Program-made: the position numbers and the translations under genes | Notes under the pieces: generated by a model | What the model saw: only the letters and a program-made list of their open reading frames with translations | Told to the model about the DNA's origin: nothing | Database searches by the model: none | Shown: positions 4,956 to 44,982 of the stretch, in pieces | Position numbering within the stretch: position 1 is the first letter of the stretch | How the letters are laid out: every line of letters starts with the position of its first letter | Sequence record: PV173775 | DNA length: 64,000 nucleotides | Strand: one strand, 5' to 3' | From: Escherichia phage GEP001

Positions 4956-4959
4956 CATT

Positions 4960-4982
4960 AGTCTCCTTCGGGAGACTTTTTT
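4960..4982 (+). terminator. intrinsic terminator
   Basis: stem AGTCTCC / GGAGACT with TTCG loop, then T6 run. Confidence 0.75.
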
Positions 4983-4992
4983 CATTTTACCG

Positions 4993-5022
4993 GTTTACTT
5001 TCCATTTGAGCTGTGATACTAT
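4993..5022 (+). promoter_or_regulatory. T4-type early promoter
   Basis: GTTTAC, 18-nt spacer, TACTAT; immediately after terminator 4960-4982. Confidence 0.55.
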
Positions 5023-5050
5023 ACAACCATCGGATAAAGAGGAGAACATC

Positions 5051-5804: not shown

Positions 5805-5834
5805 GTTTACAAGTTGGCAAGGTTATGGTATAGT
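5805..5834 (+). promoter_or_regulatory. T4-type early promoter
   Basis: GTTTACAAG, 18-nt spacer, TATAGT; partial inverted repeat around -10. Confidence 0.55.
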
Positions 5835-5862
5835 AATCTTGTCAACTGCCAAGGAGAAGAGA

Positions 5863-5969: not shown

Positions 5970-6527
5970 GTGAGTGAGTCGAAGAGAATCAATATGAAAC
6001 GATTAGTATTAGAAGTTAGTCCGCTTTTTGGTGAATTGGCTATAGAAAAAGTAAATAGCATGTATCGTTTGACGCAAGAAGACGATATGCTGTATTTTAC
6101 GCCTAGTGAAATCATTCATTTAACCCAAATTGAATATCCTTATACTGATAAAATAGTAAGCATCAATGATGAGCACAAAATTCATTTTTATTCTTCATGT
6201 CCAGGATTTAATATTAAAAGTGAGTCAATGTGTTTATCAGTTATTCATTGGGATAGTTTTATAGCTAAGATTAAATATTTTTATTATTCTAATGAAAGAA
6301 AACATAGTTTAAAATGGCTCAAAAATTGCAATGCTATTATTACTAACGATTGCAATCAGAATGATGAAACTCTTTTAAATGTATCAAAATGTTATGAAGA
6401 GGGAGATGTCTTAACTATTCGTCAAATTGATGATTTTCGATCACATATTGTCACATTTACCAAAGACGAAGCTATTGCGCTAAAGACTTATCTTGATTCT
6501 GTCATTCCAACTATGATTTCAAAGTGA
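5970..6527 (+). CDS. hypothetical protein (185 aa), paralog of next gene
   Basis: GTG start with AAAGGAG SD (alternative ATG at 5994); C-terminal motif shared with 6534..7055. Confidence 0.5.
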   Translation: MSESKRINMKRLVLEVSPLFGELAIEKVNSMYRLTQEDDMLYFTPSEIIHLTQIEYPYTDKIVSINDEHKIHFYSSCPGFNIKSESMCLSVIHWDSFIAKIKYFYYSNERKHSLKWLKNCNAIITNDCNQNDETLLNVSKCYEEGDVLTIRQIDDFRSHIVTFTKDEAIALKTYLDSVIPTMISK

Positions 6528-6533
6528 GGAAAT

Positions 6534-7055
6534 ATGTTTATTTCAAGTGAAAGTGGTTTAATTCGTGTTGAATTTAAAAATGACATCTTTCTTATTCAAG
6601 GAGATGATATTATTAAAATGAGTTATGATGAAATCAAGAAAATTTGTCATGCTCTTGAAAGTCATGGAAAGGAAAATGCTACTATCGATATAGGTGATTT
6701 ATGGGTGACACTTTATGAAGTATCCGAAGGATTTAACATTGAAGATGAAAACAACATCTTAGCTATTGATAAAAGAAGTGATTTGTTTGATGTATTAAAA
6801 GTTTATGAACAGTCAAACGGTGGAAGAAAAGCTGCATTGATTTATCAAAAACCACATTCATGTGGAACTGCTTCAATCATTTCAAATATTGAAGATGAAA
6901 CTGATACTTATATGTGTGTTTTGAAAGCTGGTGGTGACCGTCATCCGGATTTTATTTCTATTCGTCAAAACAATGGAGAAATTTCATTATCAAAATCAGA
7001 AGCTGAAGCTATGATTAAGTATTTAACAACTGTTACACCTTCAATGAAAGGATAA
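6534..7055 (+). CDS. hypothetical protein (173 aa), paralog of previous gene
   Basis: GTGAGGAAA SD; C-terminal ...YL..V.P.M motif shared with upstream neighbour. Confidence 0.55.
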   Translation: MFISSESGLIRVEFKNDIFLIQGDDIIKMSYDEIKKICHALESHGKENATIDIGDLWVTLYEVSEGFNIEDENNILAIDKRSDLFDVLKVYEQSNGGRKAALIYQKPHSCGTASIISNIEDETDTYMCVLKAGGDRHPDFISIRQNNGEISLSKSEAEAMIKYLTTVTPSMKG

Positions 7056-7057
7056 TT

Positions 7058-7519
7058 ATGATTATTAATGAAAGCTCTTGGCACTATAAATTATTCAAAA
7101 TGTTTAATGATGAATGGAAACGACCTAAGACACTATGCGCGTATTTTTGGTCTATTGTTATTCCTACATTTTTCGTTTCTTTTTTCGGATGTACTATACT
7201 CGCAGGTCTAACTATCATCTGTGCAGAAATCATACAGAAATGGCTTATTTTTGGTAGTTTATGGACTCTTATTCCATCAGCATTTATACTTGCTATTTTG
7301 CTTGTTTTACTTATTATCGGTTCATTTGTTATTCCCGCACAACTGCATGAAAAATATAAAGATTATAAATGGAAAAAGGATTACTCTTTACATGTAGAAA
7401 ATATTGATAGGGCGTATAAAGGTTTACCTCCTATTCAACCAAAGAAATCTATTATCGTCGAATTTTTAAAAGCGCGTAAAGCTAAAGTATGTCCTGTTAT
7501 TGAATATAAGGCTGAATGA
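7058..7519 (+). CDS. integral membrane protein (153 aa)
   Basis: AAAGGA SD; two or three long hydrophobic helices. Confidence 0.55.
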   Translation: MIINESSWHYKLFKMFNDEWKRPKTLCAYFWSIVIPTFFVSFFGCTILAGLTIICAEIIQKWLIFGSLWTLIPSAFILAILLVLLIIGSFVIPAQLHEKYKDYKWKKDYSLHVENIDRAYKGLPPIQPKKSIIVEFLKARKAKVCPVIEYKAE

Positions 7520-8529
7520 TGAAAACAGTAATGAAAAGCTATTTTGGTAGTCATCTTTATGGAACTTCTACTCCAGAATCTGATGTAGATTTTAAAGAAA
7601 TTTTTGTTCCTCCTGCTCGCGATATTCTTATCGGAAATGTTAAAGAGCATATGAGTAAAAACACTAACAACACATCATCTAAAAACACTAAAGATGATAT
7701 TGACCATGAACTATACAGTCTTAAGTATTTCTTTAAATTAGCAGCAGATGGTGAAACTGTAGCATTGGATATGCTTCACACTCCACCTGAACTAGTAGTT
7801 AAATCTGATTTGCCTGATGTATGGAAGTTTATTCAAGACAATCGTTCTCGTTTTTATACGACTAACATGAAATCCTATTTAGGATATGTTCGCAAGCAAG
7901 CTTCTAAATATGGTGTCAAGGGTTCTCGTTTGGCCGCATTGCGTGATGTATTGAAAGTAGTTAATCAAATCCCTGAGCAATGGGTCGATTACCAAGAAGA
8001 CGGTTCCATTAAGCAGCGTCGAACTAAAGTTGAAGATATTAAGCATCGTCTTCCAGAGAACGAATTCTGTGAATGGGTATTCCATAATCATGAGAAAACA
8101 GGCCCACAAACGTTCTACACTGTGTTGGGCCGTAAATATCAGACAACGCTTTCTCTTATCGAGCTTAAGCAGTCACTGAACAAATTAGATGCTGAATACG
8201 GCGAACGCGCTCGTAAGGCTGAAGCGAATGAGGGCATTGACTGGAAAGCTCTAAGTCATGCTTGTCGTGGCGGACTCCAACTATTGGAAATTTACAAAAC
8301 TGGTGACTTAGTCTATCCACTTCAAGACGCTCCATTTATTCTCGACGTGAAGTTGGGTAAACATCCATTTAAAACTGTTCAAGAGCTTTTGGAAGATGTG
8401 GTCGATCAAGTAGAAGCAGCATCTATTGAAGCTTCTAAGAATGGTATGCAACAAAAAGTAGACATGGGTTTCTGGGATGACTTCCTTGAGAGGGTTTATC
8501 TTGAAAACCATCGAAGTTATTATAAATGA
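7516..8529 (+). CDS. Pol-beta-superfamily nucleotidyltransferase-like protein
   Basis: N-terminal GS-x9-DVD motif (FGSHLYGTSTPESDVDF); 337 aa; ATGA overlap with upstream gene. Confidence 0.55.
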   Translation: MMKTVMKSYFGSHLYGTSTPESDVDFKEIFVPPARDILIGNVKEHMSKNTNNTSSKNTKDDIDHELYSLKYFFKLAADGETVALDMLHTPPELVVKSDLPDVWKFIQDNRSRFYTTNMKSYLGYVRKQASKYGVKGSRLAALRDVLKVVNQIPEQWVDYQEDGSIKQRRTKVEDIKHRLPENEFCEWVFHNHEKTGPQTFYTVLGRKYQTTLSLIELKQSLNKLDAEYGERARKAEANEGIDWKALSHACRGGLQLLEIYKTGDLVYPLQDAPFILDVKLGKHPFKTVQELLEDVVDQVEAASIEASKNGMQQKVDMGFWDDFLERVYLENHRSYYK

Positions 8530-8531
8530 TA

Positions 8532-8556
8532 GGGAGCCTTCGGGCTCCCTTTTTTT
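8532..8556 (+). terminator. intrinsic terminator
   Basis: stem GGGAGCC / GGCTCCC with TTCG loop, then T7 run. Confidence 0.8.
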
Positions 8557-8606
8557 ATTTCTATGGTACTATACAACTATCAACTGATACGGATTTGGAG
8601 AATAAA

Positions 8607-9575
8607 ATGAAAACTGTAACTATCAATAAGGGTATCTACTTCGGTAAAGAAATCTCTGGAACTTTTGAGCTCTTAGGCGAATGGTTCCCAGATAATGCTC
8701 CGGTAGATGCACAAGGAGATGGTAAAGTTTTTGTTGAAATTGACGGTAAACGTCGCGGTGTTTGGGTTTACAAATCAGATATTTCATATGATGGTGTAAA
8801 AGTTGAAGAAGTTAAAGAATCATATGAAGATATGAAAACCCGCATTAATAAAAGATTTAATGTTATGGGAATGATGACGAACGGTATTATTAATGGAAAT
8901 ATTCGTTCATTAATTATCTCTGGCGCAGCAGGTATTGGTAAAACGTATTCTTTAGATAAAGCTTTAAATAAAGCAAATGATATTGGATACATTGAATATA
9001 AAAGCATTAATGGTAAAATCTCTGGTATTGGTCTTTATGAGCAGCTTTGGAATAATCGTGAAGAGAATTCTGTCCTTTTGATTGATGATGTGGATGTTTT
9101 CTCTGATATGGACATTCTTAATCTTCTAAAAGCTGCTCTGGACACTGGAGAGACCCGTAAAGTCTGCTGGAGCACTGCGTCTTCTTACTTAGAAGAAAAA
9201 GGCATTGACCGTGAGTTTGAATTTAAAGGAACGATTGTTTTTATCACAAACGTTGACATTGACCGCGAATTAGACCGTGGTACTAAACTTGCTCCACATT
9301 TACAAGCATTAGTGTCCCGCTCGGTTTATTTGGATTTGGGTGTTCACACTAATGAAGAAATTATGGTCAGGGTTGAAGATGTTATTCTTTCAACTGACAT
9401 GATGCAAAAGCGTGGTCTTTCTGATGAAGAAACTTATAAAGCATTATCATGGATGAAAGTTAATGTTAACCGTTTACGCAATGTTTCACTGCGTACTGCT
9501 CTTTATCTTGCTGACTTTATTATGACCGACAAAAACGGTTGGGAAGAAATCGCTGAGGTTACTCTTCTGAAATAA
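8607..9575 (+). CDS. AAA+/P-loop ATPase
   Basis: Walker A GAAGIGKT and Walker B LLIDDVD; ATG after GGAGAATAAA; longer track ORF reads through the terminator/promoter. Confidence 0.65.
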   Translation: MKTVTINKGIYFGKEISGTFELLGEWFPDNAPVDAQGDGKVFVEIDGKRRGVWVYKSDISYDGVKVEEVKESYEDMKTRINKRFNVMGMMTNGIINGNIRSLIISGAAGIGKTYSLDKALNKANDIGYIEYKSINGKISGIGLYEQLWNNREENSVLLIDDVDVFSDMDILNLLKAALDTGETRKVCWSTASSYLEEKGIDREFEFKGTIVFITNVDIDRELDRGTKLAPHLQALVSRSVYLDLGVHTNEEIMVRVEDVILSTDMMQKRGLSDEETYKALSWMKVNVNRLRNVSLRTALYLADFIMTDKNGWEEIAEVTLLK

Positions 9576-9676
9576 TTCATAAGAGGACTTCTATGACAAA
9601 AAGGCAGTTCAGAAATAGATTATATGGACTGCCATTAAAAAGATGACTAGAATTAAACTGGTGAATGGAGGTAATG

Positions 9677-9979
9677 ATGTTATACTCAAAGGCTCGTGAA
9701 ATTTACGAAACTAAAATTAAAGAAGCAGTATTTCAGTTCGCAACGACAATGCGATGGACAAATGACTGGGAGTATTCAAAAAATCATAAGAAGCCCATGG
9801 TGGCAAGAAAGGCTCATATGTTAGTGTTAATAGACCGTGAGCAGATTAAAGCCCGAGAAGCCCTCCAGAATCATAAAAAGGCTGCCTTTGAATGGTTTAT
9901 GGATAACACTGCTCCTGAGACTAAGAAAGCAGTGAGCGCATGGTTCAGTGGAAAAAATTGTGAAAGAAGTTTCTTTTAG
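9677..9979 (+). CDS. hypothetical protein (about 100 aa)
   Basis: GGAGG SD 5 nt before ATG 9677; earlier in-frame ATGs at 9665/9674 possible. Confidence 0.5.
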   Translation: MLYSKAREIYETKIKEAVFQFATTMRWTNDWEYSKNHKKPMVARKAHMLVLIDREQIKAREALQNHKKAAFEWFMDNTAPETKKAVSAWFSGKNCERSFF

Positions 9980-9981
9980 TG

Positions 9982-10011
9982 GTTTACAAGACTGTTTCTC
10001 TGTGGTACTAT
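9982..10011 (+). promoter_or_regulatory. T4-type early promoter (repeat family copy)
   Basis: GTTTACAAGACTGTT..CTCTGTGGTACTAT; near-identical to 35564-35593. Confidence 0.55.
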
Positions 10012-10039
10012 ACAACTATCAACTACGGAGGAACACAAA

Positions 10040-10567
10040 ATGAATGCTAAAGATATTTTCAACTTGGTAAATTACAACGATGGTAAATTTAAATCTGAAG
10101 CACAAAGCAAGTTCTTTAATGACATCTCAATCGGAGGTGAAATCACAGTTGATGGAGGACAAATTTATAAATCCCGTTGGAATTGGATCGTTATTATCGA
10201 TGAGATTGGTATTGTAGAAATTTACAAGAATACGAATAAAAATCGTACATTACATTGGTCTCGTGATACTAACGAACAGTACAAAAAGGATAAAGCATCT
10301 AAATTATCTCGTGTAACTCAAGAAGATATTGAGTTCATCAAGAAAGATATTTTAATGTATGATAACTTAATTGCTGAAGAGCAAGCTGTTATTGATAAAT
10401 TTGATGAGATTAAAGCTTCTCGTGAAATTCCTGATTTTATGAAAGAATCAGTAAATGAACGATACTCTCTCATTTCAGAGCGTATTGAAACTTACAAAAA
10501 GCAAAGAGCTGAACGCCAAAATACTCTTCGGAAGTTTGAAGAACGGTTAAAGACGGTACTCGCATAA
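10040..10567 (+). CDS. hypothetical protein with C-terminal coiled-coil tail
   Basis: GGAGG SD after early promoter; C-terminal 60 aa charged heptad-like. Confidence 0.55.
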   Translation: MNAKDIFNLVNYNDGKFKSEAQSKFFNDISIGGEITVDGGQIYKSRWNWIVIIDEIGIVEIYKNTNKNRTLHWSRDTNEQYKKDKASKLSRVTQEDIEFIKKDILMYDNLIAEEQAVIDKFDEIKASREIPDFMKESVNERYSLISERIETYKKQRAERQNTLRKFEERLKTVLA

Positions 10568-10593
10568 CCGCTTTATACCAAGGATGGTATAAT
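10567..10593 (+). promoter_or_regulatory. candidate middle promoter (MotA-box-like)
   Basis: GCTTTA 10570-10575 then 12 nt to TATAAT 10588-10593. Confidence 0.4.
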
Positions 10594-10622
10594 GGTTCTA
10601 AGCCCTTTTAATTGAGATTATT

Positions 10623-11030
10623 ATGAAACGGTTGATAATTAAAAGATTGAATTTATTGATATGTTGTTTATGTGTAGTAGTTGCATATGGTTATTACGCA
10701 ATTAATGATTATATGCATTATAAAGATTATGATGTTACTGTAGTTAATACCATTACAGGAACACAAGGAAAAGGGTCTAGTTTATCGTTTATTGCCGTAT
10801 ATGAACTCAAAGACGGTTATAGATTTAGTGAATATATTTCCCCAGAGATGTATTCTTCAATAGAAAAAGGTGATAATATTACTGTAAGTTTACGTCCTTT
10901 CGACGTAAAACAGACATTGTTTGATAATATTGTTTGGTTCTTTGGGATGGTATTAGTTCAATCTGTGTGCGGTGCTTATGTAGTCTGTTCAATCATATTC
11001 TGTGTATTTAGTAAAATTGAAATTGAGTGA
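10623..11030 (+). CDS. membrane protein (135 aa)
   Basis: hydrophobic N- and C-terminal segments; downstream of a TATAAT promoter. Confidence 0.5.
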   Translation: MKRLIIKRLNLLICCLCVVVAYGYYAINDYMHYKDYDVTVVNTITGTQGKGSSLSFIAVYELKDGYRFSEYISPEMYSSIEKGDNITVSLRPFDVKQTLFDNIVWFFGMVLVQSVCGAYVVCSIIFCVFSKIEIE

Positions 11031-11037
11031 GGAAAAT

Positions 11038-11928
11038 ATGTCAGTAGTAATTAATAATGTCAATGCAGTAATTAAATCTTTAGTTAATAAAAAAATGATG
11101 AATGAATGGACTGTACTTCGTCGTGGAGAGCCAGATAATTTTTTTCATAGATTTAACCCAACTTTGGATTTGAATGTTATTGATAAAGATGTTCATGCCG
11201 AAATTTTAGATAAGTTTAAAGTTGATATTGGATTTGGATTAGAAAAACATTTGCAACGAACAAGCGGATCTGGAATGAGTTTATCTAATCGCATTATGAA
11301 AGCCCTTAATAAAATTGGAGCATTGTCTCGTATTAATGCGAGTGAAATCCTTCGTAATTACAATAAAGGATATGACCTTTATGGTCGACTAATGCCAAAA
11401 TTATCATTCGACCAAATGATTGCAGATTTGTGGGAAAATCAAAGACGATTATTAGCATTAGGCGCTCGATTAGCTAAAGGTCTAGATAAACAAATGATTT
11501 TTAAGACCAATAATACAGAAGACCTTAAATGCTTTAAATTTAGTATTCGTGGAGATGATTATTACATCAGAGCTCACTCTACAGATTATGTTAATATGGG
11601 GCATCATCTCTGTTTAGCTTTTGAAGTTTTAAAAGAAGCTGGAACATTAGAATATTCATCTGGTGCAAAATGCCCTATTGGTTCAAGTTGTATTTTAATT
11701 TATCGCCCGAATGAATCCAGTTCAACTACATTGCCTACAAAACCTGTACCAGTTCGTAGTAATGAAAAACATTCTGAACAAATTGATTATTTTAATAAGC
11801 AAATTGAAGAGCTGAATATTTCTATTCAACAGTATGACGATGAAATTTTCAGACTATCTGGATTGAGTAATAAAGCTAAATCTGAGCGTGAAAAATTAAT
11901 TAAAATTGTTGATTTACTTAAATCTTAA
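11038..11928 (+). CDS. hypothetical protein (296 aa) with C-terminal coiled coil
   Basis: TGAGGAAAA SD before ATG 11038; first of four consecutive 300-350 aa ORFs with helical C-terminal tails. Confidence 0.6.
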   Translation: MSVVINNVNAVIKSLVNKKMMNEWTVLRRGEPDNFFHRFNPTLDLNVIDKDVHAEILDKFKVDIGFGLEKHLQRTSGSGMSLSNRIMKALNKIGALSRINASEILRNYNKGYDLYGRLMPKLSFDQMIADLWENQRRLLALGARLAKGLDKQMIFKTNNTEDLKCFKFSIRGDDYYIRAHSTDYVNMGHHLCLAFEVLKEAGTLEYSSGAKCPIGSSCILIYRPNESSSTTLPTKPVPVRSNEKHSEQIDYFNKQIEELNISIQQYDDEIFRLSGLSNKAKSEREKLIKIVDLLKS

Positions 11929-11936
11929 GGAACACT

Positions 11937-12965
11937 ATGAAAACTCGTTCTCAAATTGAAGATATGGTTCGTAATGCCAGTTATACTCGTGATGTTATGA
12001 CATTTTTGTGTGAAAATAATTTAGACCCTGATAAAGTTAATCGTGTTATTCATCACTTTAAGTATACGAATAGCAGTGAATGGGTGCGTAATTTTAGTAA
12101 AGCGGGTTATATTACACAAATGACTGCTCGTGAGCAACTCACCGATTTCTGTAAAACTATTGATTATAAAAATCCTCTATTTGTTCAAGGCGTTGGTCAA
12201 AGTAAGGTCGATTTATCATCTGGATTTTTCAATCCAAATCATTATCGTATTGAATGGAGATTTATTGCTCTGTTCCGTAGACAATTAAAGCAAATTTTAT
12301 CAACTGCGAGTCGATTAAAAGGTTCTGATATTAACTTAAAGAACTTGAAATTTGATGGTTATACTCTTCAGATGGAAGTAAGACCATTAAAAGAAAATAA
12401 CAGAACTGCACGAATTAGCTTTAAACCTAATACAAAAAATTCTCTTTCAATTTGCGAATGCCTTAAATCACAGTTGACAGAAGCATTTAAGTATATGGAT
12501 GTTGTTGCTGCTGTCCAGTCTAAGATTTTACCTCGTTTTGAGCGATTTAAATTAGACACAACAACATATGAACTTGATATGATCGTTTCATTTAAATATG
12601 ATTTTTTGAGAAAGGACGAAGTCACGCAAGAGAAAAAGCAAGAAGTGCAAGATAACTTAAATTTAAATTTATCTAATTACTCATCAAACGATCCTAAATT
12701 TTGGATGTATAGTTCAGGTAATAAGGATGCATGGAAATTCAATAAAGTGAATTTTCTTCCTGTTGAAAATCCGAGTCTTAAACCTGTTGAAAAATGGCAT
12801 GCCGATGCGATTGAGAAGTCTATCAAGGCAGTAGATGATGAACTCGTTAAAGCAACTAATGAAGTGCTAGAAGCTGAAAAGATGCTAGAAAAAGCTCAAG
12901 AAAAAGTCAAAAATCTTACGAAGCAACGTTCTAAACTGAACAATGCATTAAATGCACTAAACTAG
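11937..12965 (+). CDS. hypothetical protein (342 aa) with C-terminal coiled coil
   Basis: AAGGAA SD; long ORF; same architecture as neighbours. Confidence 0.6.
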   Translation: MKTRSQIEDMVRNASYTRDVMTFLCENNLDPDKVNRVIHHFKYTNSSEWVRNFSKAGYITQMTAREQLTDFCKTIDYKNPLFVQGVGQSKVDLSSGFFNPNHYRIEWRFIALFRRQLKQILSTASRLKGSDINLKNLKFDGYTLQMEVRPLKENNRTARISFKPNTKNSLSICECLKSQLTEAFKYMDVVAAVQSKILPRFERFKLDTTTYELDMIVSFKYDFLRKDEVTQEKKQEVQDNLNLNLSNYSSNDPKFWMYSSGNKDAWKFNKVNFLPVENPSLKPVEKWHADAIEKSIKAVDDELVKATNEVLEAEKMLEKAQEKVKNLTKQRSKLNNALNALN

Positions 12966-12994
12966 TTTACTTTGCCACAAGGATGTGGTATAAT
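12965..12994 (+). promoter_or_regulatory. T4-type early promoter
   Basis: GTTTACTTTGCCACAAGGATGTGGTATAAT; near-identical to 59740-59769. Confidence 0.6.
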
Positions 12995-13022
12995 GTTCTT
13001 ACTTTCTACTGAGGAGATTAAT

Positions 13023-17598: not shown

Positions 17599-19412
17599 CA
17601 ATTGAAAAAGAAATTGAAGGATTGATTCATAAAACTAATAAAGACCTTTTAAACGAGAATGCTAATAAAGATTCTCGTGTTTTTCCAACTCAACGGGACC
17701 TTATGGCTGGTATTGTGTCTAAACACATTGCCAAAAATATGGTCCCGTCTTTTATTATGAAAGCGCATGAAAGCGGAATTATCCATTTCCACGATATTGA
17801 TTATTCCCCTGCTCTTCCATTTACTAATTGTTGTTTAGTAGATTTAAAAGGAATGCTTGAGAACGGATTTAAGCTCGGTAATGCACAGATTGAAACTCCT
17901 AAATCAATCGGCGTTGCTACTGCAATTATGGCACAAATTACTGCGCAGGTTGCTTCTCATCAATATGGTGGAACGACCTTTGCGAATGTAGATAAAGTAC
18001 TTTCTCCTTATGTTAAACGCACCTATGCAAAACATATTGAGGATGCAGAAAAATGGCAAATCGCTGATGCGTTGAATTATGCCCAATCTAAAACAGAAAA
18101 AGACGTATACGATGCATTCCAAGCTTATGAATATGAAGTAAATACTCTCTTTAGTTCAAACGGACAAACGCCTTTTGTAACAATTACATTTGGTACGGGA
18201 ACTGACTGGACTGAACGGATGATTCAGAAAGCAATTCTGAAAAATCGTATTAAAGGTCTCGGTCGTGATGGGATAACTCCTATTTTCCCTAAACTTGTTA
18301 TGTTCGTTGAAGAAGGTGTTAATCTTTATAAAGACGATCCGAACTATGATATTAAGCAGCTTGCTCTAGAGTGTGCAAGCAAAAGAATGTATCCTGACAT
18401 CATTTCGGCTAAGAACAATAAAGCTATCACCGGTTCATCTATTCCTGTTTCTCCAATGGGTTGTCGTAGTTTCTTGGGCGTATGGAAAGATTCGACTGGT
18501 AATGAAATTCTTGATGGACGTAATAATCTTGGTGTTGTAACACTGAATCTTCCTCGTATTGCGTTAGATTCTTATATTGGAACACAGTTCAATGAACAGA
18601 AATTTACTGAATTGTTCAATGAGCGAATGGATTTATGTTTTGAAGCTTTGATGCGTAGAATTAGTTCCTTAAAAGGAGTTAAAGCTACTGTTGCTCCTAT
18701 TCTTTATCAAGAAGGTGCATTCGGGGTTCGTCTTAAACCTGATGACGATATAATTGAGTTATTTAAAAACGGTAGAAGTTCAGTGTCCCTAGGATACATT
18801 GGTATTCACGAATTGAATATTCTTGTCGGTCGTGATATTGGACAAGAAATTTTAACTAAAATGAATATTCATCTTAAACAATGGACTGAAAGAACTGGTT
18901 TTGCTTTTAGCTTATATTCTACTCCTGCTGAAAACCTGTGCTATCGCTTCTGTAAACTTGATACCGAAAAATATGGAAGTGTAAAAGATGTTACCGATAA
19001 AGGCTGGTATACTAACAGTTTCCACGTTTCAGTAGAAGAAAATATTACTCCGTTTGAAAAGATTTCTCGCGAAGCTCCGTATCATTTCATTGCGACAGGT
19101 GGTCACATTTCTTATGTTGAACTTCCTGATATGAAAAATAACCTAAAAGGTCTTGAGGCTGTATGGGATTATGCTGCACAACATTTAGATTATTTTGGTG
19201 TTAACATGCCAGTAGATAAATGTTTTACATGCGGAAGTACCCATGAAATGACTCCTACTGAAAACGGGTTTGTTTGTTCTATTTGTGGAGAAACTGATCC
19301 TAAAAAGATGAACACAATAAGAAGAACTTGTGGTTATTTGGGAAATCCGAATGAACGCGGATTTAATCTCGGCAAAAATAAAGAAATCATGCATAGGGTT
19401 AAACACCAATGA
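17595..19412 (+). CDS. nrdD: anaerobic ribonucleoside-triphosphate reductase
   Basis: 605 aa continuous ORF; C-terminal glycyl-radical motif RRTCGYLG and Cys zinc ribbon; no intron interruption. Confidence 0.95.
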   Translation: MTIEKEIEGLIHKTNKDLLNENANKDSRVFPTQRDLMAGIVSKHIAKNMVPSFIMKAHESGIIHFHDIDYSPALPFTNCCLVDLKGMLENGFKLGNAQIETPKSIGVATAIMAQITAQVASHQYGGTTFANVDKVLSPYVKRTYAKHIEDAEKWQIADALNYAQSKTEKDVYDAFQAYEYEVNTLFSSNGQTPFVTITFGTGTDWTERMIQKAILKNRIKGLGRDGITPIFPKLVMFVEEGVNLYKDDPNYDIKQLALECASKRMYPDIISAKNNKAITGSSIPVSPMGCRSFLGVWKDSTGNEILDGRNNLGVVTLNLPRIALDSYIGTQFNEQKFTELFNERMDLCFEALMRRISSLKGVKATVAPILYQEGAFGVRLKPDDDIIELFKNGRSSVSLGYIGIHELNILVGRDIGQEILTKMNIHLKQWTERTGFAFSLYSTPAENLCYRFCKLDTEKYGSVKDVTDKGWYTNSFHVSVEENITPFEKISREAPYHFIATGGHISYVELPDMKNNLKGLEAVWDYAAQHLDYFGVNMPVDKCFTCGSTHEMTPTENGFVCSICGETDPKKMNTIRRTCGYLGNPNERGFNLGKNKEIMHRVKHQ

Positions 19413-19879
19413 ATTACGATAGATTTTATCCCTGTGATTTTGTGAATGGCCCTGGATGCAGGGTCGTTCTTTTCGTTACAGGTTGTTTGCATAAATGCGA
19501 AGGGTGTTATAATAAATCAACGTGGAATGCTAGAAATGGCGTTCCATTCACTGGTGAAACACTAGAACAATTAATTGAATGTTTGAATAATGATTATATA
19601 GAAGGATTAACTATAACTGGAGGAGACCCTCTCTATCCAGATAACCGAGATGTTGTTCATTGCATTGTTCAAACAGTAAAAAATCTTTATCCGAATAAAA
19701 GCATTTGGTTGTGGACAGGATATAAGTTTGAAGATATTAAACAACTAGAAATGCTTAAATATGTTGATGTTATTATTGATGGGAAGTATGAGAAAAATCT
19801 TCCGACCAAAAAGCTGTGGCGAGGATCAGATAATCAGCGACTTTGGTCAAATACCGATGGGGTGTGGAAACATGATTAA
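19409..19879 (+). CDS. nrdG: anaerobic RNR activating protein (radical SAM)
   Basis: 156 aa; CxxxCxxC cluster (CLHKCEGC); ATGA overlap with nrdD. Confidence 0.9.
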   Translation: MNYDRFYPCDFVNGPGCRVVLFVTGCLHKCEGCYNKSTWNARNGVPFTGETLEQLIECLNNDYIEGLTITGGDPLYPDNRDVVHCIVQTVKNLYPNKSIWLWTGYKFEDIKQLEMLKYVDVIIDGKYEKNLPTKKLWRGSDNQRLWSNTDGVWKHD

Positions 19880-19994: not shown

Positions 19995-20210
19995 ATGTAT
20001 AAATTTCGTAAAGGTTTAGCTGATTTTCTTACAACTGTAACATTCTTTCTGTTTATGGCAGTTGGAGCTATTTTTCTTATTCCTTTTATTGTTATATTTT
20101 TCGTAATTAGTTTGATTTCTCCAGAAAAAGGACTGTCTTCTAGCGAGTTCAATGAGCGCCTGGATAAAATTACTAACAAACTGAATGCTGTTCTTGATAA
20201 AAAGGCTTAA
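19995..20210 (+). CDS. small membrane protein (71 aa)
   Basis: AAGGG SD; long hydrophobic central segment. Confidence 0.5.
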   Translation: MYKFRKGLADFLTTVTFFLFMAVGAIFLIPFIVIFFVISLISPEKGLSSSEFNERLDKITNKLNAVLDKKA

Positions 20211-21779: not shown

Positions 21780-21796
21780 GGGCTTCGGCCCTTTTT
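21780..21796 (+). terminator. intrinsic terminator (UUCG hairpin)
   Basis: GGGC TTCG GCCC followed by TTTTT. Confidence 0.7.
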
Positions 21797-24190: not shown

Positions 24191-24214
24191 AAACCAAAAC
24201 AATGAGGATATTAA

Positions 24215-25417
24215 ATGAAAGTATGCATTTTTATGGCTCGAGGTCTTGAAGGTTGTGGTGTAACTAAATTTTCTCTTGAGCAACGTGATTGGTTTATTAA
24301 AAATGGTCATGAAGTAACTTTGGTTTATGCTAAAGATAAATCATTTACTCGTAATTGCGCGCATGATTATAAATCATTTTCAATTCCGGTTTTATTGGCA
24401 AAAGAATACGATAAAACACTTAAGCTGGTAAATGATTGTGATATTCTAGTTATCAATTCAGTTCCTGCTACTTCAGTCGAAGAAGACACTATTAATAACT
24501 ATAAAAAAATTATTGATAACATTAAACCTTCGGTTCGTGTTGTAGTTTATCAGCATGACCATTCTTCTCTTTCTTTGCGCCGAAATTTGGGATTAGAAGA
24601 AACTGTTCGTCGAGCTGATGTTATTTTTAGTCATTCTGATAATGGCGATTTTAATAAAGTTTTGATGAAAGAATGGTATCCGGAAACTGTTTCTCTGTTT
24701 GATGATATTGAAGAAGCACCGACTGTATATAACTTTCAGCCTCCTATGGATATTGCGAAGGTTCGATCAACCTACTGGAAAGATGTTTCTGAAATTAACA
24801 TGAATATCAACCGTTGGATTGGTCGTACTACTACATGGAAAGGCTTTTATCAGATGTTTGATTTTCACGAAAAACATCTTAAACCTGCAGGACTAAGTAC
24901 TATTATGGAAGGTCTGGAACGTTCTCCAGCATTCATTCCTATTAAAGAAAAAGGAATTCCATACGAGTATTATCGTCTTCATCAAGTAGACCAAATTAAA
25001 ATTGCTCCTAATTTGCCAACGCAAATTCTCGACCGTTATGTAAATAGCGAAATGCTTGAACGCATGAGTAAATCCGGATTTGGTTATCAGTTGAGTAAAT
25101 TAGATAAAAAATATTTACAACGTTCTTTAGAATATACTCATCTCGAGCTTGGTGCATGTGGAACAATTCCAGTATTTTGGAAATCTACTGGTGAAAATTT
25201 AAAATTCCGTGTTGATAACACTCCGTTAATTTCTCATGATAGCGGTATCGTTTGGTTTGATGAAAATGACATGGAATCAACATTTGAACGTATTAAAGAA
25301 CTGTCATCTGACCGAGCTCTTTATGACCGCGAACGTGAAAAAGCTTATGAATTTTTGTATCAGCATCAAGATTCAAGCTTCTGCTTTAAAGAACAGTTTG
25401 ACATTATTACAAAATAA
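24215..25417 (+). CDS. agt: DNA alpha-glucosyltransferase
   Basis: 400 aa; near-identical to T4 alpha-gt as recalled; GAGGA SD; MotA-box promoter upstream. Confidence 0.9.
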   Translation: MKVCIFMARGLEGCGVTKFSLEQRDWFIKNGHEVTLVYAKDKSFTRNCAHDYKSFSIPVLLAKEYDKTLKLVNDCDILVINSVPATSVEEDTINNYKKIIDNIKPSVRVVVYQHDHSSLSLRRNLGLEETVRRADVIFSHSDNGDFNKVLMKEWYPETVSLFDDIEEAPTVYNFQPPMDIAKVRSTYWKDVSEINMNINRWIGRTTTWKGFYQMFDFHEKHLKPAGLSTIMEGLERSPAFIPIKEKGIPYEYYRLHQVDQIKIAPNLPTQILDRYVNSEMLERMSKSGFGYQLSKLDKKYLQRSLEYTHLELGACGTIPVFWKSTGENLKFRVDNTPLISHDSGIVWFDENDMESTFERIKELSSDRALYDREREKAYEFLYQHQDSSFCFKEQFDIITK

Positions 25418-25433
25418 AGGGCTTCGGCCCTTT
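25416..25433 (+). terminator. UUCG hairpin after a-gt
   Basis: AAAGGGC TTCG GCCCTTT; no long U tract. Confidence 0.5.
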
Positions 25434-25456
25434 AGCTTTATACGGAGTTTGATATA

Positions 25457-25597
25457 ATGATATTTCTTGGATATGTGATACTTTTTCTAGCGTTTTATCT
25501 ATTCACTAGAGCATGTTGGATTGGGTTCTTTAGCACTCCAGATGGATTTATTTCAATAATTTTATTTTGCATTTCAATGACGGTTCTTGATATATGA
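25457..25597 (+). CDS. small hydrophobic membrane peptide (46 aa)
   Basis: GGAG SD 9 nt upstream; two hydrophobic stretches; ATGA overlap with downstream gene. Confidence 0.4.
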   Translation: MIFLGYVILFLAFYLFTRACWIGFFSTPDGFISIILFCISMTVLDI

Positions 25598-30725: not shown

Positions 30726-30728
30726 TAG

Positions 30729-30742
30729 AGGGCTTCGGCCCT
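30729..30742 (+). terminator. UUCG hairpin after gene 45
   Basis: AGGGC TTCG GCCCT. Confidence 0.5.
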
Positions 30743-30776
30743 TTATAATTTACACTAAAACTTGAATGAGGAAATT

Positions 30777-32749: not shown

Positions 32750-35446
32750 ATGAAAGAATTTTATATCTCTATCGAAACAGTCGGAAATAATATTGTTGAA
32801 CGTTATATTGATGAAAATGGAAAGGAACGTACTCGTGAAGTAGAATATCTTCCGACTATGTTTAGGCATTGTAAGGAAGAGTCAAAATACAAAGACATTT
32901 ATGGTAAAAATTGCGCTCCTCAAAAATTTCCATCAATGAAAGATGCACGAGACTGGATGAAACGAATGGAAGATATCGGTCTCGAAGCTCTCGGTATGAA
33001 CGATTTTAAACTCGCTTATATCAGTGATACATATGGTTCAGAAATTGTTTATGACCGAAAATTTGTTCGTGTAGCTAACTGTGACATTGAGGTTACTGGT
33101 GATAAATTTCCTGACCCAATGAAAGCAGAATATGAAATTGATGCTATCACTCATTATGATTCAATTGACGACCGTTTTTACGTCTTTGATTTGTTGAATT
33201 CAATGTACGGTTCAGTATCAAAATGGGATGCAAAGTTAGCTGCTAAGCTTGACTGTGAAGGTGGTGATGAAGTTCCTCAGGAAATTCTTGACCGAGTAAT
33301 TTATATGCCATTCGATAATGAGCGTGATATGCTCATGGAATATATTAATCTCTGGGAACAGAAACGACCTGCTATTTTTACCGGTTGGAATATTGAGGGA
33401 TTTGACGTTCCGTATATCATGAATCGCGTTAAAATGGTTCTCGGTGAACGTAGTATGAAACGCTTCTCTCCAATCGGTCGAGTAAAATCTAAACTAATTC
33501 AAAATATGTACGGTAGCAAAGAAATTTATTCTATTGATGGCGTATCTATTCTTGATTATTTAGATTTGTACAAGAAATTCGCATTTACTAATTTGCCATC
33601 ATTCTCTTTGGAATCAGTTGCTCAACATGAAACCAAAAAAGGTAAATTGCCGTACGATGGTCCTATTAATAAACTTCGTGAGACTAATCATCAACGATAC
33701 ATTAGTTATAACATTATTGACGTAGAATCAGTTCAAGCAATTGATAAAATTCGTGGGTTTATCGATCTAGTTTTAAGTATGTCTTATTATGCTAAAATGC
33801 CTTTTTCTGGCGTAATGAGTCCTATTAAAACTTGGGATGCTATTATTTTTAACTCATTGAAAGGTGAACATAAGGTTATTCCTCAACAAGGTTCGCACGT
33901 TAAACAAAGTTTTCCAGGTGCATTTGTGTTTGAACCTAAAGCGATTGCCCGTCGATACATTATGAGTTTTGACTTGACGTCTTTGTATCCTAGCATTATT
34001 CGTCAGGTTAACATTAGTCCTGAGACTATTCGTGGACAGTTTAAAGTTCATCCAATTCATGAATATATCGCAGGAACAGCTCCTAAACCAAGTGATGAGT
34101 ATTCATGTTCTCCGAATGGATGGATGTATGATAAGCATCAAGAAGGTATCATTCCAAAGGAAATCGCTAAAGTATTTTTCCAACGTAAAGATTGGAAAAA
34201 GAAAATGTTCGCTGAAGAAATGAATGCCGAAGCTATTAAAAAGATTATTATGAAAGGTGCAGGGTCTTGTTCAACTAAACCGGAAGTTGAACGATATGTT
34301 AAGTTCAATGATGATTTCTTAAATGAATTATCGAATTACACCGAATCTGTTCTTAATAGTCTGATCGAAGAATGTGAAAAAGCAGCTACACTTGCTAACA
34401 CAAATCAGCTGAACCGTAAAATTCTTATTAACAGTCTTTATGGTGCTCTTGGCAATATTCATTTCCGTTACTATGATTTGCGAAATGCTACTGCTATCAC
34501 AATTTTTGGTCAAGTTGGTATTCAGTGGATTGCTCGTAAAATTAATGAATACCTGAATAAAGTATGTGGAACTGATGGTGAAGATTTCATTGCAGCAGGT
34601 GATACTGATTCGGTATATGTCTGTGTAGATAAAGTTATTGAAAAAGTAGGTCTTGACCGCTTTAAAGAACAAAATGATTTAGTTGAATTCATGAATCAGT
34701 TTGGTAAGAAAAAGATGGAACCTATGATTGATGTTGCATATCGTGAGTTATGTGATTATATGAATAACCGCGAGCATCTGATGCATATGGACCGTGAAGC
34801 TATTTCTTGCCCTCCACTTGGTTCAAAGGGTGTTGGTGGATTTTGGAAAGCGAAAAAACGTTATGCTCTAAACGTTTATGATATGGAAGATAAGCGATTT
34901 GCCGAACCGCATCTAAAAATCATGGGTATGGAAACTCAACAAAGTTCAACACCAAAAGCAGTACAAGAAGCTCTCGAAGAAAGTATTCGTCGTATTCTTC
35001 AGGAAGGCGAAGAGTCTGTCCAAGAATACTACAAGAACTTTGAGAAAGAATATCGTCAACTTGACTATAAAGTTATTGCTGAAGTAAAAACTGCGAATGA
35101 TATAGCGAAATATGATGATAAAGGTTGGCCAGGATTTAAATGCCCGTTCCACATTCGCGGTGTGCTAACTTATCGTCGAGCTGTTAGTGGTTTAGGTGTA
35201 GCTCCAATTTTGGATGGAAATAAGGTAATGGTTCTTCCATTACGTGAGGGAAATCCATTTGGTGATAAGTGCATTGCTTGGCCGTCGGGTACGGAACTTC
35301 CAAAAGAAATTCGTTCTGATGTACTGTCTTGGATTGACTACTCAACTTTGTTCCAAAAATCGTTTGTTAAACCGCTTGCGGGTATGTGTGAATCGGCAGG
35401 TATGGACTATGAGGAAAAAGCTTCGTTAGACTTCCTGTTTGGCTGA
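32750..35446 (+). CDS. 43: DNA polymerase gp43 (family B)
   Basis: 898 aa; exonuclease and polymerase motifs (DxE, YGDTDS); matches T4 gp43. Confidence 0.95.
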   Translation: MKEFYISIETVGNNIVERYIDENGKERTREVEYLPTMFRHCKEESKYKDIYGKNCAPQKFPSMKDARDWMKRMEDIGLEALGMNDFKLAYISDTYGSEIVYDRKFVRVANCDIEVTGDKFPDPMKAEYEIDAITHYDSIDDRFYVFDLLNSMYGSVSKWDAKLAAKLDCEGGDEVPQEILDRVIYMPFDNERDMLMEYINLWEQKRPAIFTGWNIEGFDVPYIMNRVKMVLGERSMKRFSPIGRVKSKLIQNMYGSKEIYSIDGVSILDYLDLYKKFAFTNLPSFSLESVAQHETKKGKLPYDGPINKLRETNHQRYISYNIIDVESVQAIDKIRGFIDLVLSMSYYAKMPFSGVMSPIKTWDAIIFNSLKGEHKVIPQQGSHVKQSFPGAFVFEPKAIARRYIMSFDLTSLYPSIIRQVNISPETIRGQFKVHPIHEYIAGTAPKPSDEYSCSPNGWMYDKHQEGIIPKEIAKVFFQRKDWKKKMFAEEMNAEAIKKIIMKGAGSCSTKPEVERYVKFNDDFLNELSNYTESVLNSLIEECEKAATLANTNQLNRKILINSLYGALGNIHFRYYDLRNATAITIFGQVGIQWIARKINEYLNKVCGTDGEDFIAAGDTDSVYVCVDKVIEKVGLDRFKEQNDLVEFMNQFGKKKMEPMIDVAYRELCDYMNNREHLMHMDREAISCPPLGSKGVGGFWKAKKRYALNVYDMEDKRFAEPHLKIMGMETQQSSTPKAVQEALEESIRRILQEGEESVQEYYKNFEKEYRQLDYKVIAEVKTANDIAKYDDKGWPGFKCPFHIRGVLTYRRAVSGLGVAPILDGNKVMVLPLREGNPFGDKCIAWPSGTELPKEIRSDVLSWIDYSTLFQKSFVKPLAGMCESAGMDYEEKASLDFLFG

Positions 35447-35459
35447 TAGAATAAATCTA

Positions 35460-35480
35460 GGGACCTCCGGGTCCCTTTTT
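35460..35480 (+). terminator. intrinsic terminator after gene 43
   Basis: GGGACC TCCG GGTCCC followed by TTTTT. Confidence 0.8.
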
Positions 35481-35563
35481 CATACAAGTAATATAAATCT
35501 ATACTTAGGAAAAATAGATGATTCTGGACCTCTGGAATTCATTAAAAAATTTTTCACAAAATG

Positions 35564-35593
35564 GTTTACAAGACTGTTCCTCTGTGGTACTAT
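35564..35593 (+). promoter_or_regulatory. T4-type early promoter (repeat family copy)
   Basis: GTTTACAAGACTGTTCCTCTGTGGTACTAT; follows gene 43 terminator. Confidence 0.55.
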
Positions 35594-35627
35594 ACAACTA
35601 TCAACTGATGCGGATTTGGAGAATGAA

Positions 35628-36008
35628 ATGAAAATCGCTATTTTGGTTATTGCATTGGGTCTTACTGGTTGTGTAGCTCAAGGACCAGTAGTAAATCAGT
35701 CTGATGTAGGAAAAATTGTAAACTGCTCAAGCAAATTTTATAATCCTAATGTTAAGTGTTATAAAGAAGCTCCAAAACAGACAGTAGAACAAATGCAGGC
35801 GAATTTTGACGAAGCTATTCGTCCAGATGAATCTGCCCAAGCATATCGTAATTCAGATGTAATTACACGCGAAGAAAAAATTGAAAGCTACTGCGCTGAA
35901 CTTTGGGCTAATTGGGCTAATAATTACCAATGGCGTACTGGTAAAAATGCTCCGATGGAGTATGTAGTGAATTCTTATAATTCATGTGTAAAAAATTTGA
36001 CTAAGTGA
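35628..36008 (+). CDS. lipoprotein (126 aa)
   Basis: signal peptide with lipobox LTGC; GGAGAATGAA SD; track ORF N-terminus reads through terminator/promoter. Confidence 0.6.
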   Translation: MKIAILVIALGLTGCVAQGPVVNQSDVGKIVNCSSKFYNPNVKCYKEAPKQTVEQMQANFDEAIRPDESAQAYRNSDVITREEKIESYCAELWANWANNYQWRTGKNAPMEYVVNSYNSCVKNLTK

Positions 36009-36015
36009 GGAAAAC

Positions 36016-36267
36016 ATGGAAACTTTAGTAGCAGGTTCAATTTTTATGGTTTTAGTTTCAGGCGTGTTGGCTATTATTATATACATGCTTCCATGGTTCA
36101 TCGCCTTGATGCGTGGGTCAAAATCGACAGTAGGAATCTTTTTCACATCTTTACTGTTTAACTGGTCAATTATTGGTTGGTTTATTACATTTATTTGGTC
36201 AATTGCGGGTGAAACTAAAAAATCTGCACAGCAAAACCAAGTAATTATCATCAGAGAGAAGGAATGA
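36016..36267 (+). CDS. imm: superinfection immunity membrane protein Imm
   Basis: 83 aa, two transmembrane helices; matches T4 Imm in size and position next to 43/42. Confidence 0.75.
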   Translation: METLVAGSIFMVLVSGVLAIIIYMLPWFIALMRGSKSTVGIFFTSLLFNWSIIGWFITFIWSIAGETKKSAQQNQVIIIREKE

Positions 36268-36413
36268 AAAGCAAAATTATAGCAGTGTTGCTTTTAATCT
36301 TGATGATTATAATAAGTATATACTATAGTGTAACGGTTCCTCTTATGATTCCAACGCTTATTATAGGGTGGAGTTTATTACTGTTACAAGTTAAATATGA
36401 ATGTATCAATTGA
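36264..36413 (+). CDS. small hydrophobic membrane peptide (49 aa)
   Basis: ATGA overlap with imm; two hydrophobic segments; ends 8 nt before gene 42. Confidence 0.4.
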   Translation: MKSKIIAVLLLILMIIISIYYSVTVPLMIPTLIIGWSLLLLQVKYECIN

Positions 36414-36420
36414 GGTTTAA

Positions 36421-38000: not shown

Positions 38001-38077
38001 TGCCTAAATTTATTGTGTTATAATTACTCTATCTTTAACCAGTGAGGAAAATATAATGATGCCTATGGAAAAAATGA

Positions 38078-41033: not shown

Positions 41034-41073
41034 TTTACAAGCCGACAAGACTATGGTATAGTAGTCTTGTCGG
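41033..41073 (+). promoter_or_regulatory. early promoter of dmd with perfect 12-bp inverted repeat around -10
   Basis: GTTTAC 41033-38, TATAGT 41057-62; arms CCGACAAGACTA (41042-53) and TAGTCTTGTCGG (41062-73). Confidence 0.6.
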
Positions 41074-41091
41074 TTAAATGAGGAGATTTTT

Positions 41092-41535: not shown

Positions 41536-41578
41536 GTTTACAAGCTGATAGAGTTGTGTTATAGTAATTCTATCAGCT
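41536..41578 (+). promoter_or_regulatory. early promoter with 9-bp inverted repeat flanking -10
   Basis: GTTTAC 41536-41, TATAGT 41560-65; arms AGCTGATAG (41543-51) and CTATCAGCT (41570-78). Confidence 0.55.
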
Positions 41579-41596
41579 AATCGCGGAGAAAAGAAA

Positions 41597-41851: not shown

Positions 41852-41915
41852 TTTACTTTTGTTTTAAACATGTTATTATAGACCTATCAAAACAAACGAG
41901 TAAATGGAGAATAAA

Positions 41916-42095: not shown

Positions 42096-42198
42096 AACTG
42101 AAATCACCAATTATTGTAATTTGTCTGTTTGCTTCTACTAGTGTTTACTTTTGTTGAAAATTGAGATACTATAAACATAAACTACTGAGGAGATTATC

Positions 42199-43126: not shown

Positions 43127-43127
43127 T

Positions 43128-43484: not shown

Positions 43485-43485
43485 T

Positions 43486-44878: not shown

Positions 44879-44927
44879 GTGTCGTCCTCCTTTAAATTAA
44901 ATATTTATCGCAAATTTTACAAAATTT

Positions 44928-44973: not shown

Positions 44974-44982
44974 GATAATATA

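Follow-up and report, generated by a model that had tools for sequence, protein, structure and literature searches.

Dispersed repeats in the early region of Escherichia phage GEP001 as probable T4-type early promoters and leaders

Upstream of nrdC.10 in Escherichia phage GEP001 lies a segment of about 50 nt that returns almost unchanged upstream of imm.1 and, in part, at two further loci. This raises the question of what these repeats are and what has kept them so alike. We analysed a 64,000-nt stretch of sequence record PV173775, referred to here as the window, which by its sequence is a segment of a Tequatrovirus (T4-like) genome from the classical early region. In a BLAST comparison against T4, the whole window was collinear with the reverse complement of T4 from position 63,595 to 1, with 19 indels breaking the alignment. 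Identity to T4 and to about 500 Tequatrovirus genomes was 90-98%, and for each of the regions 8000-12000 and 35000-37000 many Tequatrovirus genomes reached 98%. Most homing endonuclease genes known from T4 are missing from the window.

A repeat family at four early loci

A sequence-only reading had reported near-identical repeats at four loci. BLAST of the window against itself with a short word size returned eight non-trivial matches, the top two of which were the pairs so reported. Positions 8564-8613 matched 35585-35634 at 48 of 50 positions (96%, 50 nt, E 2.5e-16), and 9980-10024 matched 35562-35606 at 44 of 45 (97.8%). A 22-nt core, TGGTACTATACAACTATCAACT, was exact at 8564, 10003 and 35585 and carried three mismatches at 56066. 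None of 100 shuffled sequences contained a match to this core, and none is expected by chance. The family sits upstream of nrdC.10 (8564), nrdC.8 (9982), imm.1 (35564) and an 89-aa ORF before cef (56045), each time with the layout of putative promoter, leader of 25-35 nt, Shine-Dalgarno (SD) sequence and ATG. All four elements have counterparts at orthologous positions in T4, so the family is old within the genus. The candidate promoter of mobD.5 (4993) is a fifth, more distant relative (TGATACTATACAACCATCGG).

The further repeat pairs listed in that reading all aligned, at 74-97% over the intervals it had proposed or parts of them. A composite of terminator (4960-4977) and early promoter (4993-5022) on the + strand upstream of mobD.5 is paired with a UUCG terminator and early promoter at 47241-47301 (+) upstream of mrh.2, and the stem carries compensatory changes between the two (partner intervals 4960-5022 and 47241-47301). 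Overall, 4957-5025 and 47235-47305 are 75% identical, rising to 93% between the cores 4963-5004 and 47241-47283. The predicted early promoters upstream of nrdC.4 (12965-12994, +) and rIIA.1 (59740-59769, +) lie in segments (12962-12995 and 59738-59770) that are 91% identical, and 97% identical over the 32 nt that end at 59769 in the second copy (59738-59769). A pair at 82% identity is formed by 44928-44985 (+), the early promoter and leader of a 541-bp promoter-plus-ORF cassette that T4 does not have, and 54341-54400 (+), the early promoter and leader in front of motB.2, which correspond to 8.1-8.2 kb on the T4 map. The last pair, 25416-25460 and 57853-57900, is 74% identical and reaches 87% over a 31-nt terminator. 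Both copies of this terminator are UUCG-tetraloop hairpins on the + strand, GGGCTTCGGCCC at 25411-25441 and GGCCTTCGGGCC at 57848-57878, and they differ by a compensatory change.

The repeats also leave a trace in six-frame ORF calls. ORFs 8526..9575 and 35439..36008 share an N-terminal peptide that had been called spurious, and it is indeed an artefact of reading through the leader in frame. The first ORF starts with MIGSLRAPFFYFYGTIQLSTDTDLENKMKT and the second contains CGTIQLSTDADLENEMKI internally, while the real start codons are the ATG at 8607 for nrdC.10 and the ATG at 35628 for imm.1. The cassettes thus account for the spurious N-terminal extensions of both calls.

Fit to the T4 early-promoter pattern

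The early promoters of phage T4 are a textbook system, in which unmodified host sigma70 RNA polymerase begins transcription as soon as infection has taken place. A generic sigma70 scan found 44 sites where 45.8 were expected and did not discriminate in a genome so rich in AT, and we therefore searched with the T4-specific pattern GTTTAC-N18-TAnnnT, which corresponds to a 17-nt spacer in sigma70 terms. The window contained 19 matches against 0.78 expected. All 19 lie on the + strand, the early-gene strand of the window. Nearly all are followed by an SD and ATG at a distance of 18-47 nt. The genes downstream are regB, mobD.5, mobD.2, nrdC.10, nrdC.8, nrdC.4, 55.6, imm.1, dmd, sp, mrh.2, modB, srd, motB.2, motB and rIIA.1, all of them T4 early genes. 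Aligned on the -10 element, the sites gave the consensus attttt..A.T.GTTTAC...TgTGgTAt.AT...tatca, in which tatca is the start-site motif. The annotation of the close relative SA20RB lists these sites as T4 early promoters and terminators, on the basis of similarity only.

The family members follow this pattern to different degrees. GTTTAC stands 18 nt before TAnnnT at 9982 and 35564, as at 17 further sites; at 56045 it is replaced by the partial match ATATAC, and the 8558 copy has no -35 element. TGn plus TAnnnT is present in all four as TGGTACTAT (8564, 10003, 35585 and 56066). An A/T-rich UP element is clear at 35545-35561 and 56027-56043, weaker at 9963-9981 and missing at 8558. The nrdC.8 element (9963-10042, +) has its -35 GTTTAC at 9982-9987, TGn/-10 at 10003-10011, the family core at 10003-10024 and the ATG at 10040. 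The imm.1 element (35545-35630, +) consists of the UP sequence AAAAATTTTTCACAAAA (35545-35561), -35 (35564-35569), TGn/-10 (35585-35593), leader (35594-35627) and ATG (35628). The diverged member before cef (56026-56120, +) has a UP sequence, AAAATTTTTTCATAAAA, at 56027-56043, the weak -35 ATATAC at 56045-56050 and TGn/-10 at 56066-56074. A 13-bp perfect inverted repeat (56051-56063 and 56081-56093) surrounds its -10 (fold z = -4.4), and GGAGAATAAAA at 56108-56118 runs into the ATG at 56118 of the 89-aa ORF. This ORF is kept in about 300 records as in the window. In about 200 records, including T4, it has a 200-bp internal deletion, and the promoter, the leader and an 11-codon stub stay in place.

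T4 early promoters have been described as having a UP/-35/TGn/-10 architecture and further consensus regions in addition to -35 and -10 (Hinton 2010, PMC2988021). The elements in the window fit this pattern, precede an SD and ATG and have orthologues in T4, in agreement with their earlier description as promoter/leader repeats. Taken together, these results suggest that the repeats are very probably T4-type early promoters plus short leaders, their activity in GEP001 being judged from sequence.

For the copy at 8558 that description holds only in part. TGn/-10 and the leader are present, but this is not a whole promoter, as the -35 and UP elements are gone. Following nrdC.11 is an intrinsic terminator (8531-8556, +), detected by terminator scan and RNA folding, with a UUCG-tetraloop hairpin at 8531-8550 and then a T-run. 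The truncated promoter and leader (8564-8606, +) begin with TGn at 8564-8566 and the -10 TACTAT at 8567-8572, within the core at 8564-8585; the leader carries the SD GGAG, and 8597-8609 (+) reads GGAGAATAAAA and then the ATG at 8607-8609. Relative to T4 and SA20RB, a 38-bp deletion has removed the UP element and -35. T4, SA20RB, BW-1 and vB_SsoM_113 have the terminator, UP element, GTTTAC, a palindromic spacer, CATAAAGCTTTATG, and then TGGTACTAT. In GEP001 the T-run of the nrdC.11 terminator abuts TATGGTACTAT, and GCTCCC occupies the -35 position. No record among 50,697 phage genomes spanned this terminator/-10 junction, and IMG/VR held no exact match to it; the deletion is a feature specific to the window, found in no other record searched. 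We found no clear microhomology at the junction and therefore propose no mechanism for the deletion. Promoters of the TGn/-10 class need no -35 contact and are insensitive to AsiA (PMC2988021). Lacking -35 and UP, the 8558 copy may be weak or inactive as a promoter; nrdC.10 may still be driven by it or may now rely on transcripts that read through the nrdC.11 terminator. The deletion before nrdC.10 offers a natural test of what a bare TGn/-10 contributes to a T4 early promoter.

Mosaicism, probable shared descent and possible leader regulation

We propose that the repeats are composite cassettes. A UUCG-hairpin terminator would often precede a very strong sigma70-dependent early promoter made up of an A/T-rich UP element, -35 GTTTAC(A/T), TGn and -10 TAnnnT, and a short leader, a GGAG-type SD and the ATG would follow. 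Selection for the extended T4 early-promoter consensus would give any two such cassettes about 50% identity. Shared descent, together with ectopic homologous recombination or gene conversion, would keep the four-locus family at 96-98%. The invariant 22-nt core TGGTACTATACAACTATCAACT would serve as the crossover zone that gave rise to the imm.1 mosaic, and the same cassettes would act as joints for the insertion, deletion and duplication of small ORF modules.

Within the window, identity was typically 50% (sd 9%) between promoters and 43% (sd 10%) between leaders, over a background of 28%. By comparison, identity was 97% over 36 nt for the leaders of nrdC.10 and imm.1 (8543/35564) and 80% over 51 nt for the promoters of nrdC.8 and imm.1 (9982/35564), both several standard deviations beyond typical pairs. 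The imm.1 element is, by its sequence, a mosaic in which the -35/spacer/-10 half is of the nrdC.8 type and the leader half of the nrdC.10 type; the switch falls within the 22-nt core.

RNA folding points to the source of the promoter half. In the predicted read-through RNA at nrdC.8, the promoter spacer pairs with the SD region in a 14-bp hairpin (9993-10035) that sequesters GGAGG; the fold has z = -3.6, and the cognate spacer-leader duplex, at -17.9 kcal/mol, ranks 1 of 19. The spacer, CTGTTTCTCTGTGGT, is the 5' arm of this hairpin and the nrdC.8 SD region is its 3' arm. At imm.1 the same spacer has no pairing partner (z = +0.7; duplex rank 17 of 19). This orphan half-hairpin suggests an nrdC.8-type element as the source of the imm.1 promoter half, and argues against convergence. 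The promoter half of imm.1 in the window shows 100% identity to the nrdC.8 promoter found in PP01, HP3, BW-1, SA20RB, SsoM113 and others. At most imm.1 loci, by contrast, identity over these 101 nt is only about 93%, with about 97% in the flanking 2 kb. Among the imm.1 alleles of T4, CT01, ime09, P8, ESh16 and the window, the segment from -35 to -10 is a patchwork. From this mosaicism, which is directly visible in the alignments, we infer ectopic gene conversion between the nrdC.8 and imm.1 copies, 25 kb apart, the mechanism and the direction of the exchanges both being our reading of it.

Could these similarities have arisen in another way? Independent selection of each promoter towards the optimal T4 early-promoter consensus would explain why all early promoters of the window share an extended consensus at about 50% identity against a background of 28%, and consensus regions in addition to -35 and -10 are on record for T4 early promoters (PMC2988021). 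We nevertheless regard convergence as the sole cause as very improbable, because the 96-98% identity extends over spacer and leader positions that are free to vary in the remaining promoters, about 15 in number. In addition, the change of partner within the imm.1 element falls exactly on the common core, the spacer of this element is the unpaired half of the nrdC.8 hairpin, and the imm.1 alleles are a patchwork of paralogue sequence. The imm.1 mosaic could in principle also stem from co-infecting phages that exchanged different alleles of the same locus, but that would not account for the identity to the paralogous nrdC.8 promoter. The dispersal of the copies and the truncation at 8558 might instead call to mind assembly duplications or a self-mobilising element such as a MITE or a homing-site analogue. 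This is extremely unlikely: the four copies sit at these loci also in T4 and in hundreds of genomes that were sequenced independently, there is no transposase, target-site duplication or terminal inverted repeat, Rfam reports no family in the window, and the T4 homing endonuclease genes are those mostly missing here. The conservation in T4 effectively refutes an assembly artefact or mobile element. Shared descent with exchange between the copies, acting on T4-type early promoters, is therefore the explanation we prefer.

Compatible with this explanation is the idea that the leader is conserved as a cis-regulatory signal, be it a RegB/S1 site, a translational operator or an operator for a shut-off factor, so that the four genes form a small post-transcriptional regulon; we consider this possible, if on balance doubtful. 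The strong RegB/S1 cleavage consensus is GGAGRAYARAA, or GG*AGRAYARAA (Durand et al. 2006, as reviewed in PMC3014915). GGAGAATAAAA matches it perfectly at 8597, 41906 and 56108, in all three cases forming the SD of a gene behind an early promoter, and the imm.1 site (35618) is one mismatch away (GGAGAATGAAA). Three such motifs in the window compare with 0.46 expected, a count that 1 of 100 shuffles reached and that is only modestly significant. The window has its own regB orthologue behind the promoter at 800. A search for RNA structure in the leaders of nrdC.10 (z = +0.4) and imm.1 (z = +0.7) gave a negative result, so that a structured RNA element was rejected there; RegB requires leaders that are unstructured in this way. 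A TATCA-N2/5-TGATA dyad at about +1 to +17 also speaks for a signal, and the mechanism by which early promoters are shut off has been left open (PMC2988021). On the other hand, the RegB motif spans only 11 of the roughly 36 leader bases that are conserved. At nrdC.8 the core is shared, but the SD region differs (GGAGGAACAC) and the dyad is missing; the dyad may also represent what is left of the hairpin arm at the cef locus. From its sequence, GGAGAATAAAATG is probably an SD-proximal consensus RegB/S1 site, so that the early mRNAs concerned are probably inactivated by RegB, and selection for this site probably helps to conserve the final stretch of about 15 nt in the cassette. That core and leader (+1 to about +30, with the dyad and GGAGAATAAAATG) are a dedicated operator rather than a recombination scar, joining nrdC.10, imm.1 and the ORF before cef under a single regulator such as the shut-off factor of T4 early promoters, seems very improbable; what speaks for it is sequence conservation. 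Were it true, the 8558 copy would be a natural TGn/-10 variant that would escape -35-directed AsiA and UP-directed ADP-ribosylated alpha, and the timing of nrdC.10 would shift.

Module junctions and comparison with known systems

The repeats had also been proposed as recombination substrates that shuffle gene modules. Comparison of locus boundaries among related phages bears this out, with several breakpoints lying within cassettes: at 41536/42143, at the nrdC.11/nrdC.10 junction, in CT01 and in the mosaicism of imm.1. In the first case, two early promoters (41536-41565 and 42143-42172; 41536-42172, +) surround a 607-bp module that is absent from T4 and contains two small ORFs and a third promoter at 41851. 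At 20104-20110 T4 instead has a single chimeric promoter, whose upstream half corresponds to 41536 and whose downstream half corresponds to 42143, with the crossover inside GTTTAC. At the nrdC.11/nrdC.10 junction, vB_SsoM_113 carries a two-ORF insert between direct repeats TTGG(A/G)GAATAAAATGAAAACT. BW-1 has a different two-ORF insert there, flanked by CCCTTTTTTATTTCAAAA(A)TTTTTTCACAAA, which represents the terminator T-tract plus the UP element. The flanks of both inserts are duplicated parts of the cassette. This one junction occurs in four allelic states. A search of the rest of the window for the insert ORFs of these relatives, as moved modules, gave no matches; one of the BW-1 ORFs is a distant ModB-like fragment. 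CT01 and its relatives have a 268-bp partial tandem duplication at imm.1, the second copy of which starts just upstream of TGn/-10 and has no -35. The cassettes indicate where Tequatrovirus genomes gain and lose accessory modules, and these comparisons add clear instances: a crossover within the -35 hexamer, an apparent conversion from nrdC.8 to imm.1 over 25 kb and four states at one junction.

As a caveat, only about 4 of the 38 indel ends between the window and T4 fall within a cassette, a weak enrichment (binomial p about 0.05), and the notion of such repeats as recombination substrates has already been published under the name of PeSLs. Seven of the indels are homing-endonuclease genes that are present in T4 and missing here; such genes and insertions at gene junctions together make up most of the indels. 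The cassettes are a minor route of plasticity in the window.

The elements in the window agree with T4 early promoters, which are sigma70-dependent and have the consensus GTTTAC-N14-gtggTAttaT (PMC2988021), in hexamers, spacing, TGn, A/T-rich UP element, orientation and placement before early genes. Each of the four family members has a direct T4 orthologue, at about 55.36, 53.92, 27.06 and 6.61 kb respectively, and the 54341 element is orthologous to the T4 promoter near 8.2 kb. The nrdC.10 copy departs from this system, since T4 early promoters have UP and -35 elements whereas the copy in the window is a bare TGn/-10 fused to the upstream terminator. The leaders resemble RegB/S1 targets in T4 early mRNAs, with an exact 11-nt fit at three early-gene SDs of the window and leaders that are unstructured. 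The nrdC.8 element is comparable to the hairpin-sequestered initiation regions of T4 e, soc, 49 and I-TevI (PMC3014915), in that the proximal promoter starts within the hairpin. As the hairpin would pair the SD in read-through transcripts, only the transcript from the proximal promoter should be freely translated according to the folding model. In the T4 genes the internal promoter is late or middle, whereas that of nrdC.8 is early, and its effect on translation is a prediction only.

The closest parallel at the level of module exchange is provided by promoter-early stem-loop cassettes (PeSLs), which serve as joints of small-module exchange (Arbiol 2010, PMC2839356; Comeau 2014, PMC4122927). 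They were described for RB49/phi1, and the model was extended to the T4/PST pair (PMC2839356, PMC4122927); in that model recombination between cassettes would release mini-circles in the course of infection, and Arbiol 2010 looked for excised mini-circles by inverse PCR or deep sequencing of infected cells (PMC2839356). The stem-loop of a PeSL may stand upstream of the promoter, between -35 and -10, or over the -10. The cassettes in the window are the same composite of stem-loop, early promoter, SD and ATG. A stem-loop lies just upstream (4960, 8531 and 47241) or over the -10 with G-U pairs (5805, 41033, 41536, 56045 and 9982). Hairpins over the -10 are found at 10 of 19 promoters, and the 35564 copy is without one. 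Cognate spacer-leader duplexes rank 1 of 19 (permutation p < 5e-5), with compensatory changes in 6 of 15 pairs. As in the published PeSLs (PMC2839356, PMC4122927), the indel and replacement junctions of relatives lie in the AT-rich UP element, the -35 or the segment from -10 to ATG. On this comparison the PeSL model fits the module junctions, and in this respect the phenomenon is already known. The window differs from the published cases in two ways. Most of its indels relative to T4 are not at cassettes, and, while the PeSL papers emphasise excision and insertion between neighbours, the apparent conversion from nrdC.8 to imm.1 across 25 kb would go somewhat beyond them.

Gene content relative to T4

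Alignment of the window with T4 left gaps at window positions 6552-7515, 18130-18133, 19409-19429, 24199-24224, 37143-38090, 46864-46946 and 59340-59405. GEP001 lacks most of the T4 homing-endonuclease genes of this region together with the nrdD intron (mobD, I-TevII, mobC, mobB, segA, segF and mobA/60.1), and its topoisomerase subunit gene 39/60 appears to be unsplit by the mobA insertion.

Directly 5' of dam (45543-46322), a 541-bp cassette of promoter and ORF was observed at 44914-45456 that is absent from T4; an imperfect repeat, ATCGCAAA/ATCACAAA, forms its boundaries. Its ORF (44983-45543, + strand) encodes a 186-aa product with a D...EIK motif and a weak Pfam match to DpnII restriction endonuclease (E 0.002; 17.9 bits, which does not reach the cutoff of 23). 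This product may be a remnant of a GATC restriction-modification system.

A 49-bp direct repeat (43082-43130 and 43440-43488, 92-93% identity) spans a gene end plus TAATATG. Its copies flank an extra 118-aa ORF (43128-43484, + strand), which adjoins the 61.2/AdfA homologue (42494-43126) and matches the C-terminal half of AdfA, the anti-DarT factor A (PF23813, E 1.9e-8). At the same place T4 has a single copy of the repeat and lacks the 118-aa ORF. Between motB and cef, an 89-aa ORF (56118-56387, + strand) is found in ~300 Tequatrovirus records, and a Pfam search with it returned no match. T4 (6482-6609), RB32 and ~200 others carry a 200-bp deletion inside this ORF, located at an AAAAT microhomology; what remains is the promoter, the leader and a stub of 11 codons (MENSLKVLILF) that lacks annotation.

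Rearrangements in related phages

In Escherichia phage BW-1 (L005, 958-1442), a two-ORF insert annotated as 'RNA polymerase ADP-ribosylase' was observed at the nrdC.11|nrdC.10 junction. Its first ORF shares ~30% identity with a segment of the T4 protein ModB (tblastn E 7e-7), so the insert probably represents a split Mod-like paralogue in the form of a cassette flanked by promoters.

Shigella phage CT01 has a 268-bp partial tandem duplication at imm.1 (L006, 775-1100; orthologous window positions 35573-35722). The first unit comprises the promoter and leader of imm.1 with the first 32 codons of the gene, after which come 118 nt of unrelated sequence; the second is a copy of the -10 and leader without the -35, followed by the full imm.1 gene. 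Judged by record span, the duplication is also present in PEC04, HY01 and ECO07P2.

Hairpins at terminators and early promoters

Almost all intergenic terminator hairpins of the window carry a C(UUCG)G tetraloop (4960-4977, 8531-8550, 21780-21793, 25418-25432, 30728-30743, 47241-47258, 57855-57869, 63135-63150 and 63363-63378). Paralogous terminator copies show compensatory stem changes, such as GGGCTTCGGCCC versus GGCCTTCGGGCC and AGTCTCC..GGAGACT versus GGACTCC..GGAGTCC.

Ten of the 19 early promoters in the window are enclosed in a hairpin, in which the spacer between -35 and -10 serves as the 5' arm and the initial transcribed region as the 3' arm (5808-5848, 41036-41076, 41539-41579, 56051-56093 and 9993-10035, with further examples at 800, 54341 and 55449). 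Duplexes between each spacer and its cognate transcribed region had energies of -17 to -23 kcal/mol and ranked first of 19 (permutation p < 5e-5). The presence in the stems of both G-U pairs and compensatory pairs (6/15) points to selection acting on the RNA of read-through transcripts. In the T4/PST study of PeSLs, the promoter-early stem-loop cassettes, the stems were placed upstream of the promoter (PMC4122927); stems over the -10 are on record for RB49/phi1 (PMC2839356).
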